Positions 23,885-24,427 of a stretch of 64,000 nucleotides of DNA are shown in pieces. Location of the stretch: contig JBAZOT010000003.1 in the NCBI GenBank assembly GCA_041648575.1, positions 14,895 through 78,894 of the forward strand, given 5' to 3'. This stretch comes from Patescibacteria group bacterium. Lineage in GTDB: Bacteria > Patescibacteriota > Patescibacteriia > Veblenbacterales > UBA10138. Within the stretch, counting starts at the first letter, position 1; each line of letters opens with the position of its first letter. The position numbers and the translations under genes are program-made. The notes beneath the pieces were generated by a model, which saw only the letters and a list, made by a program, of their open reading frames with translations, did no database searches and was not told where the DNA came from.

Positions 23885-24022
23885 AAGTTTAGTTATTAGT
23901 TAATAGTTGATAGTTATTAGTAATAAATTTAAGCTATTGACAGATTAATAAGTTTATATTAAGGTTAGATAAAATTCAAGATAAATAATTAATTAAAATT
24001 GTAAATTTCTAAGGAGTAAAAA

Positions 24023-24220
24023 ATGATTATCTATATCTACGACATATTAACCCCTGATGACCTAACCATCACTGAACTTAGAGAATTAATGAATCATTAT
24101 GGCCAAAAAGGAATTAAAGTCAAAGTGCTACACATAGAAAAAATTCGGGGGGGAATTGTACAAAATTGCGGTAATATTATTTTACAAACAACACAAGAAG
24201 TGGCTACCATCCAAAAATAA
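24023..24220 (+). CDS. small hypothetical protein (65 aa) encoded antisense inside the atp operon gap
   Basis: Strong RBS TAAGGAGTAAAAA before ATG. Weak hairpin plus T-tract downstream (24258-24300). Confidence 0.4.
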   Translation: MIIYIYDILTPDDLTITELRELMNHYGQKGIKVKVLHIEKIRGGIVQNCGNIILQTTQEVATIQK

Positions 24221-24324
24221 AATACTCCTGTCAAATATCAATTTATTCGTTTCTTCAACTCCAGCGATGAATACATCAACGGAGTTTTTTATTTTCTTAA
24301 AATTACAGTTTTTATTTTTTCTGG

Positions 24325-24385
24325 ATTCCCCCACTACGCGGGGCAAGCCGCTGGAGTTTATCCCCGCGTAGGCGGGGACGGGAAT
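24325..24385. repeat. GC-rich imperfect palindrome; one arm resembles a type I-E CRISPR repeat (CCCCGC-CTAC-GCGGGG-ATAAAC, minus-strand reading)
   Basis: Arms ATTCCCCCACTACGCGGGG and CCCCGCGTAGGCGGGGACGGGAAT separated by 18 nt. No spacer-repeat periodicity, so not an array. Confidence 0.5.
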
Positions 24386-24427
24386 GACGTTTTTAAATCT
24401 TACTCTATACTCTTACTCTTACTTAAT

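Follow-up and report, generated by a model that had tools for sequence, protein, structure and literature searches.

A probable NTS/SRM-type hairpin repeat with a nested insert in the atpG–atpD spacer of a Patescibacterium

INTRODUCTION

In Neisseria, the ssDNA hairpins of the Neisseria Transformation Sequence (NTS) are bound by SsnA, a single-domain GIY-YIG nuclease that cuts a few nucleotides upstream (PMC11893778). The NTS, CGTCATTCCCGCGMAVGCGGGAATCYRG, includes the dRS3 element (ATTCCC-N8-GGGAAT) and is one case of a broader class, the Ssn-related motifs or SRM (Chenal et al. 2025, PMC11893778). The ssn genes are typically flanked by NTS/SRM repeats, NTS units accumulate in intergenic DNA, often beside variable genes, and lower identity has been reported for genes that adjoin dRS3 (PMC11893778). 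The same Neisseria 21-mer is classed by Bertels and Rainey as a REPIN.

We analyzed a 64,000-nt stretch of DNA (the window), which is part of a 101-kb metagenomic contig from a Patescibacteria MAG (ENA ERZ27249422 k141_75984). A first-pass annotation of this DNA had pointed to an interrupted atp operon and, within the interruption, to a palindrome resembling a type I-E CRISPR repeat. We find that the palindrome is very probably an NTS/SRM hairpin repeat, a REP-like unit of 27–28 nt with the pattern (C)GTCAT-YCCCGC-GNAG-GCGGGR-ATCCAG and the core of the Neisseria dRS3. The type of repeat is already known, the host is new, and the copy has an unusual nested form and lies in a variable intergenic spacer; none of this overturns current knowledge. 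The analysis removes a false CRISPR lead, gives the element a name and extends a recently described family to a Patescibacteria genome with a GC content of 37%.

RESULTS AND DISCUSSION

The atpG–atpD spacer is a variable insertion site

The atp genes lie on the minus strand in the order atpE-F-H-A-G-D-C, which was confirmed with Pfam. The spacer under study (23885–24427) is bordered upstream by atpG, encoding the F1 gamma subunit (24428–25369, minus strand; PF00231, E = 4.9e-91), and downstream by atpD, encoding the F1 beta subunit (22493–23884, minus strand; PF00006, PF02874 and PF22919). atpG stops at 24428 and atpD starts at 23884, which leaves 543 bp between them, compared with 2–94 bp for the remaining atp gaps. 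These distances agree with the initial description of an operon broken by about 540 bp and otherwise spaced by no more than 100 nt.

By comparison with relatives, the spacer contains a lineage-specific insertion of ∼500 bp. The atpG–atpD spacing is 38–57 bp in four of the closest relatives (L003, L004, L005 and L007, with AtpG 70–81% identical), and the sister MAG L209 (GCA_043806155.1, AtpG 96% identical) has a homologous spacer of 641 bp. The insertion, which includes one hairpin unit and a 65-codon antisense ORF (ORF65), is common to the window and L209 and is absent from more distant relatives. Other members of the clade carry different material at this position. The 340-bp spacer of L006 holds an unrelated, GC-rich structured palindrome of ∼150 nt (4945–5100) with no match in Rfam, and the same spacer in L210 (3535–4197; AtpG 86% identical) carries a 220-aa HELGH ORF that belongs to no family; this ORF was compared with ORF65 as a possible relative and is unrelated. 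Because the contents of the spacer differ among relatives, the position is a recurrent insertion site in the clade, a small hot spot at which different inserts have been acquired independently, and in this respect it resembles the minimal mobile elements. The atpD-proximal end is AT-rich, with 4.7 tandem copies of the heptamer TTAGTTA (23889–23921, identified by TRF) just upstream of atpD, and the leader AACTATTAACTAA.AACTAAA.TTATG in this region is common to the window, L209 and L210.

Two further observations concern the neighboring genes. The atpG sequences of the window (24428–25369) and L209 (1768–2709) diverge by ∼18% over the first 720 nt and by ∼4% over the last 220 nt and beyond into the spacer, a mosaic pattern that suggests recombination between strains. 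The ATP synthase delta subunit (26932–27327, minus strand) has 131 residues and matches only positions 54–172 of the OSCP profile. It has the same length in L210, and from its sequence it seems to be a delta subunit without the N-terminal part.

The palindrome has the oriented ends of an NTS/SRM unit

The composite repeat is 69 nt in length (24321–24389, minus strand) and its oriented ends can be read directly. On the minus strand it reads CGTCAT-TCCCG-(40-nt insert)-CGTAGTGGGGGA-ATCCAG or, in full from 24389 to 24321, CGTCAT-TCCCG-T-CCCCGC-CTAC-GCGGGG-AT-AAAC-TCCAGCGGCTTG-CCCCGC-GTAG-TGGGGG-A-ATCCAG. The arms of the palindrome (24327–24343 and 24362–24378) are inverted, non-identical and separated by 18 nt; each is 17 nt long, they are 88% complementary, and together with the flanking ATTCCC and GGGAAT they reach ∼22 nt, which bears out the imperfect palindrome originally seen in the spacer. 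It is the only copy in the window, where no match is expected by chance. A GC content far above background had also been noted there. This holds for the palindrome itself (0.67, compared with 0.37 for the window); the GC-rich part covers only ∼66 nt, and the rest of the spacer ranges from 0.22 to 0.33.

The non-palindromic orientation marks of the family are both present in the window element, with CGTCAT at 24389–24384 and ATCCAG at 24326–24321 of the minus strand. A covariance model built from 45 units, none of which contains the 18-mer used as the query in the metagenome scan described below, matches the core of the window element (24360–24379) with E = 2.3e-4 and identifies two units in the 3.6-kb contig of L209, each with E = 3e-10. 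Weak matches to the same model at 8767–8793 (in what looks like gyrB), 14771–14800 and 50716–50755 lie inside ORFs and were taken as chance. The assignment to the family rests on context and orthology and not on the stretch of the element that resembles a CRISPR repeat.

The window element shares with the NTS/SRM repeats of PMC11893778 the consensus of the unit, the hairpin core, the oriented flanks CGTCAT/ATCYRG and the extragenic position. It differs in its host, a Patescibacterium of 37% GC, in its copy number, which is one in 83 kb and not in the hundreds, in being interrupted by a 40-nt insert, and in that no canonical ssn gene of the cd10448 type was found nearby in the contig. The strict published patterns (NTS with at most one mismatch; SRM regular expression HGTCWY...RNCYNB) match nothing in either the window or L209. 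By our own count, each of the L209 units has 2 mismatches to NTS, and the SRM expression is passed by only 72 of 113 clear members of the family. The dRS3 hexamers of the window element (24325–24330 and 24380–24385) have 49 nt between them and thus fall outside the dRS3 definition (N8). This spacing sets the element apart from Neisseria dRS3, REPINs and minimal mobile elements, as does the fact that neither a RAYT nor a filamentous-phage integrase context was seen.

The same unit is dispersed in metagenomes and genomes

A scan of metagenomes for the exact 18-mer CCCCGCCTACGCGGGGAT, the stem-loop core of the nested unit, returned at least 80 loci. Among the 80 listed, 64 are solo units with the flanks CTGGAT...GAC and five are true arrays with a 61-nt period; the contigs that host the solo units range from 30 to 73% GC. 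The usual partner of a unit is GTCATTCCCGCGAAGGCGGGAATCCAG, which lies 20–70 nt away in inverted orientation, and at some loci the units form alternating clusters. Two loci, L101 and L148, have tandem or alternating SRM clusters with a period of ∼53 nt that are BIME-like.

The consensus of 113 distinct units is a 27-nt repeat, GTCAT-YCCCGC-GNAG-GCGGGR-ATCCAG, and is the published NTS. The 8-bp stem is supported by covariation, with double changes in seven of the eight pairs, a level that was reached in none of 500 shuffles. The same units are found in replicons of Azospirillum, Neisseria, Photobacterium, Aeromonas and sphingomonads. When doublets of the family were searched against Rfam, they matched only generic long-hairpin models, below threshold. 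Using the GIY-YIG protein of the window as the query, we found an Ssn-type GIY-YIG ORF beside or between units at five metagenome loci, which reproduces the published association of repeat and nuclease.

A plain unit in the sister MAG reveals a nested insert

At the orthologous site, L209 has a plain canonical unit, GTCATTCCCGCGCAGGTGGGAATCCAG, which differs from NTS at 2 positions and fits dRS3 exactly (ATTCCC-GCGCAGGT-GGGAAT). The flanks of this unit are identical to those of the window at 38 of 39 and 93 of 98 positions, and in the pairwise alignment a gap of 41 columns falls between identical flanks. It follows that 40 nt are nested within the window copy (24339–24378, minus strand). This insert, T-CCCCGC-CTAC-GCGGGG-AT-AAAC-TCCAGCGGCTTG-CCCCG, has no counterpart in L209, and its exact boundary is ambiguous because CCCG is repeated at both junctions. 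It carries a second hairpin of the NTS/SRM type in inverted orientation, and its presence lengthens what is otherwise a hairpin of only 8 bp to a palindrome with arms of ∼22 nt. The junction GTCAYTCCCGTCCCCGCCTACGCGGGGAT..ACTCCRGCGG also occurs in L118 and L105, two unrelated metagenome contigs that have 45 nt of junction sequence in common with the window, indicating that the nested form is a propagated variant rather than a one-off event. The 40-nt difference may capture, in a Patescibacterium, the insertion of one SRM unit into the hairpin of a second one, and the comparison of a plain and a nested unit at one orthologous site could inform how NTS/SRM repeats grow.

L209 has a second SRM unit within a 135-bp MITE-like insert (3130–3270) that lies just upstream of atpD and has 14-nt terminal inverted repeats. 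ORF65 of L209 is bracketed by inverted units, a layout like the NTS–gene–NTS arrangement of the published family. The copy number is one unit in 83 kb for the window contig and two units in the 3.6-kb contig of L209, for a family that is normally multicopy.

A REPIN, a terminator or a CRISPR remnant are less probable origins

The alternative that survives best is a REPIN origin, in which the element would be an inverted pair of REPs that a RAYT transposase (Y1/IS200-like) copies, with no link to Ssn. The master 21-mer of the Neisseria REPINs, ATTCCCGCGCAGGCGGGAATC, has the same core, the window element is itself an inverted doublet that forms a long hairpin (DNA folding energies of −16.5 and −17.5 kcal/mol), and units of the family form inverted doublets and BIME-like clusters. 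However, the genes called over 83 kb of the contig include no Y1 transposase (PF01797), the Pfam tables for them list no transposase of any other kind, and the population of near-identical copies typical of REPINs is absent from the same 83 kb. The GIY-YIG ORFs beside or between units at five loci also speak for a link to Ssn, although they demonstrate this association and not the absence of a RAYT. We consider a REPIN origin unlikely. The likeness to REP and BIME sequences of E. coli, which have a known effect on mRNA 3′ ends, is one of form: both are short GC-rich imperfect palindromes of alternating orientation in intergenic or operon-internal spacers, whereas their sequences are unrelated and the reported partner of NTS/SRM is Ssn rather than TnpA-REP.

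The hairpin might instead be a bidirectional terminator that arose locally where ORF65 and atpG converge and that has no ancestry in a repeat family. It is positioned exactly between the two convergent genes, it folds strongly as RNA (−32.7 kcal/mol, z = −2.97), and on the plus strand a T5 run follows 12 nt past the inner stem and 4 nt past the outer ATTCCC/GGGAAT stem. On the atp strand, though, the hairpin is followed by runs of A and not U, and a terminator scan calls no terminator on either strand of 23885–24427. Moreover, the sequence is that of a dispersed family, down to the 45-nt junction common to the unrelated L118 and L105. A purely local origin is accordingly very improbable. A terminator-like role is compatible with the NTS/SRM explanation; what the terminator model does not account for is where the element came from. 

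On the NTS/SRM reading, we infer that the element would now serve chiefly as a stable hairpin separating the transcripts of ORF65 and atpG, which converge on it, and that it could limit read-through or stabilize 3′ ends. Expression of atpDC might in that case rely on read-through or on a promoter within the spacer. The promoter-like matches in the spacer are consensus matches only.

The resemblance to type I-E CRISPR repeats that was noted originally is genuine. The shared features are a CCCCGC-N4-GCGGGG stem-loop with T before it and AT(R)(R)AC after it, and they are seen in a 29-mer, CCCGTCCCCGCCTACGCGGGGATAAACTC (24355–24383, minus strand), which is identical to real metagenomic I-E repeats at 21–23 of 29 positions, 18 of these being fixed in advance by how the comparison set was retrieved. 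The E. coli type I-E repeat matches the 29-mer at 19 of 29 positions, and its 3′ handle is identical to the ATAAAC tail of the nested unit. The exact 18-mer of the metagenome scan is the repeat core of arrays with a 61-nt period, with 62 copies in L104, 27 in L115 and 23 in L164, and is also found in the array L135; the L164 array adjoins cas3, cse1 and cse2. The CRISPR repeat of P. avidum uses the same 18-nt core (PMC3316620).

The type I-E appearance of the window palindrome arises because the 40-nt nested insert carries the CCCCGC-CTAC-GCGGGG-AT hairpin. For the nested 29-mer alone, the tail ATAAAC is no worse a match to I-E handles than to the SRM tail ATGAC. The layout of the locus, in contrast, is not that of a CRISPR. 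Instead of direct repeats with ∼32-nt spacers, the locus has two non-identical copies in inverted orientation with 18 nt between them, and there is no leader. The window contains no direct 28–29-nt repeats with ∼32-nt unique spacers and no periodic repeats, and no further copy of the hairpin was found in 83 kb of the contig with up to 3–6 mismatches allowed. None of cas3, cse1, cse2, cas7, cas5, cas6e, cas1 or cas2 is present in the Pfam tables for all called genes of the contig from 5333 to 88321. The outer ends of the element are the NTS marks CGTCAT and ATCCAG, and the orthologous site in L209 is occupied by a plain NTS unit. There is only the slimmest chance that the palindrome is a single or decayed type I-E repeat, or a degenerate mini-array, that outlived a lost system or was acquired with foreign DNA, and the reading of the palindrome as a CRISPR remnant is not supported. 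The first-pass annotation had offered three origins for the palindrome. The inverted arrangement, the lack of an array or cas genes in 83 kb, and the recurrence of the hairpin as a generic, solitary repeat across many loci that are unrelated, an observation which that annotation itself had named as evidence against CRISPR, speak against two of them, a CRISPR repeat that is vestigial or solitary and a fragment resembling a protospacer. Its third suggestion, a GC-rich REP-type insertion that splits the operon, is supported: the element can now be named as an NTS/SRM (dRS3-type) hairpin repeat, which makes up only ∼69 nt of the ∼500-bp insertion.

A separate question is whether the two repeat classes have a common origin. 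Both NTS/SRM and I-E repeats have the sequence T-CCCCGC-N4-GCGGGG-AT and then a tail of (R)(R)AC, identical 18-mers are found in both classes, and tails like those of I-E repeats occur inside an NTS frame in the nested units of the window (ATAAAC) and L118 (ATGGAC). Even so, we regard it as highly doubtful that NTS/SRM and type I-E repeats are evolutionarily related rather than coincidentally alike.

Broader searches gave no competing identification. Rfam at the gathering threshold over the whole window, and at a permissive threshold over the spacer, returned only the tmRNA elsewhere and nothing credible in the spacer. A 78-nt segment containing the element (24318–24395) matched nothing in plasmids and phages better than E = 2, and a scan of viral contigs gave 0 matches. 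An integron attC reading was rejected by eye, there being no R″/R′ boxes (RYYYAAC/GTTRRRY).

ORF65 is an orphan that may be young or fast-changing

ORF65 (24023–24220, plus strand) is an orphan ORF of 65 codons that is antisense to the atp operon. A Shine-Dalgarno-like TAAGGAGT (24010–24017) precedes its ATG by 5 nt; the ORF and the motif are thus as first described, and the spacing of 7 nt given for this textbook ribosome-binding site is not. Just 4 of the window's 36 genes have a motif of this kind, and ORF65 of L209 has AAGGGT instead. Shine-Dalgarno motifs are nearly absent from the genome, and the two clear AGGAG cases are ORF65 and a plus-strand TonB_C gene at 30778. Downstream of ORF65, an inverted-repeat search located the weak hairpin and T-tract that had been reported there (24257–24300, plus strand). 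The hairpin is interrupted (24257–24269 paired with 24274–24286), is followed by T6AT4 and was not called by the terminator scan; the interval that includes it (24221–24322) is identical to L209 at 93 of 98 positions.

Searches of 5.8e9 protein clusters, a full HMMER scan and a search with a two-sequence profile found no homologue of ORF65 other than itself, and there is no match to a Pfam, PHROG or NCBIfam family. The one weak HMMER match, P0002 (E = 3e-4), is to a protein with a six-fold repeat, and its score looks inflated. Among the genomes searched, only the window and L209 have ORF65, and in L209 it is open over exactly 65 codons. The two versions are identical at 41 of 65 residues and 158 of 198 nucleotides, with a dN/dS of 0.96 and differences that are spread evenly over the codon positions. 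The chance that 40 random substitutions would leave ORF65 free of stops is 0.10, and the chance of finding a similar ORF in shuffled spacer sequence is 0.046. Its codon score of 0.123 is above that of all 49 spurious ORFs and falls in the lowest 7% of chunks of real genes. The AlphaFold model, with a pLDDT of 50, is uninformative. A diversity-generating retroelement was considered as the source of the fast change and rejected, as the differences have no adenine bias and consist of 21 transitions and 19 transversions.

On the basis of these sequence comparisons, ORF65 is possibly a young or fast-changing gene. Its unusually fast divergence beside a repeat echoes the lower identity of genes adjacent to dRS3, but the contrast in conservation between ORF65 and its flanks should not be over-read because the divergence between the window and L209 is itself mosaic, as seen in atpG.

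A GIY-YIG gene and other elements of the window

No canonical ssn gene was found, and the window contains one GIY-YIG gene, which encodes a single-domain protein of 85 aa (60293–60550, minus strand) and lies between infC and the tmRNA gene. It is preceded by hairpins and by three copies of ACTTCATGG, and no SRM units lie beside it. The protein is 33–42% identical to the SRM-flanked Ssn-type ORFs and lacks their KKWNR..NP.W.DL C-terminal tail; its closest annotated match is yazA of B. subtilis. Judged by its sequence, it could be a divergent Ssn-like nuclease.

Two other repeats were observed in the window. An element of ∼150 nt is present in two copies (6330–6488 and 51630–51781) with ∼82% column identity; it has the internal inverted repeats CCAGTAACAAAAACTTGAC and GTCAAGTTTTGTTACTGG and looks like a small MITE. 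A perfect 28-nt palindrome, ATTTACCCTTTCGCGCGAAAGGGTAAAT, and a copy that is 89% identical are located at 32717–32744 and 33073–33100, around a gene for a 92-aa HTH_5 (ArsR-type) protein, and these paired palindromes may be operator sites.
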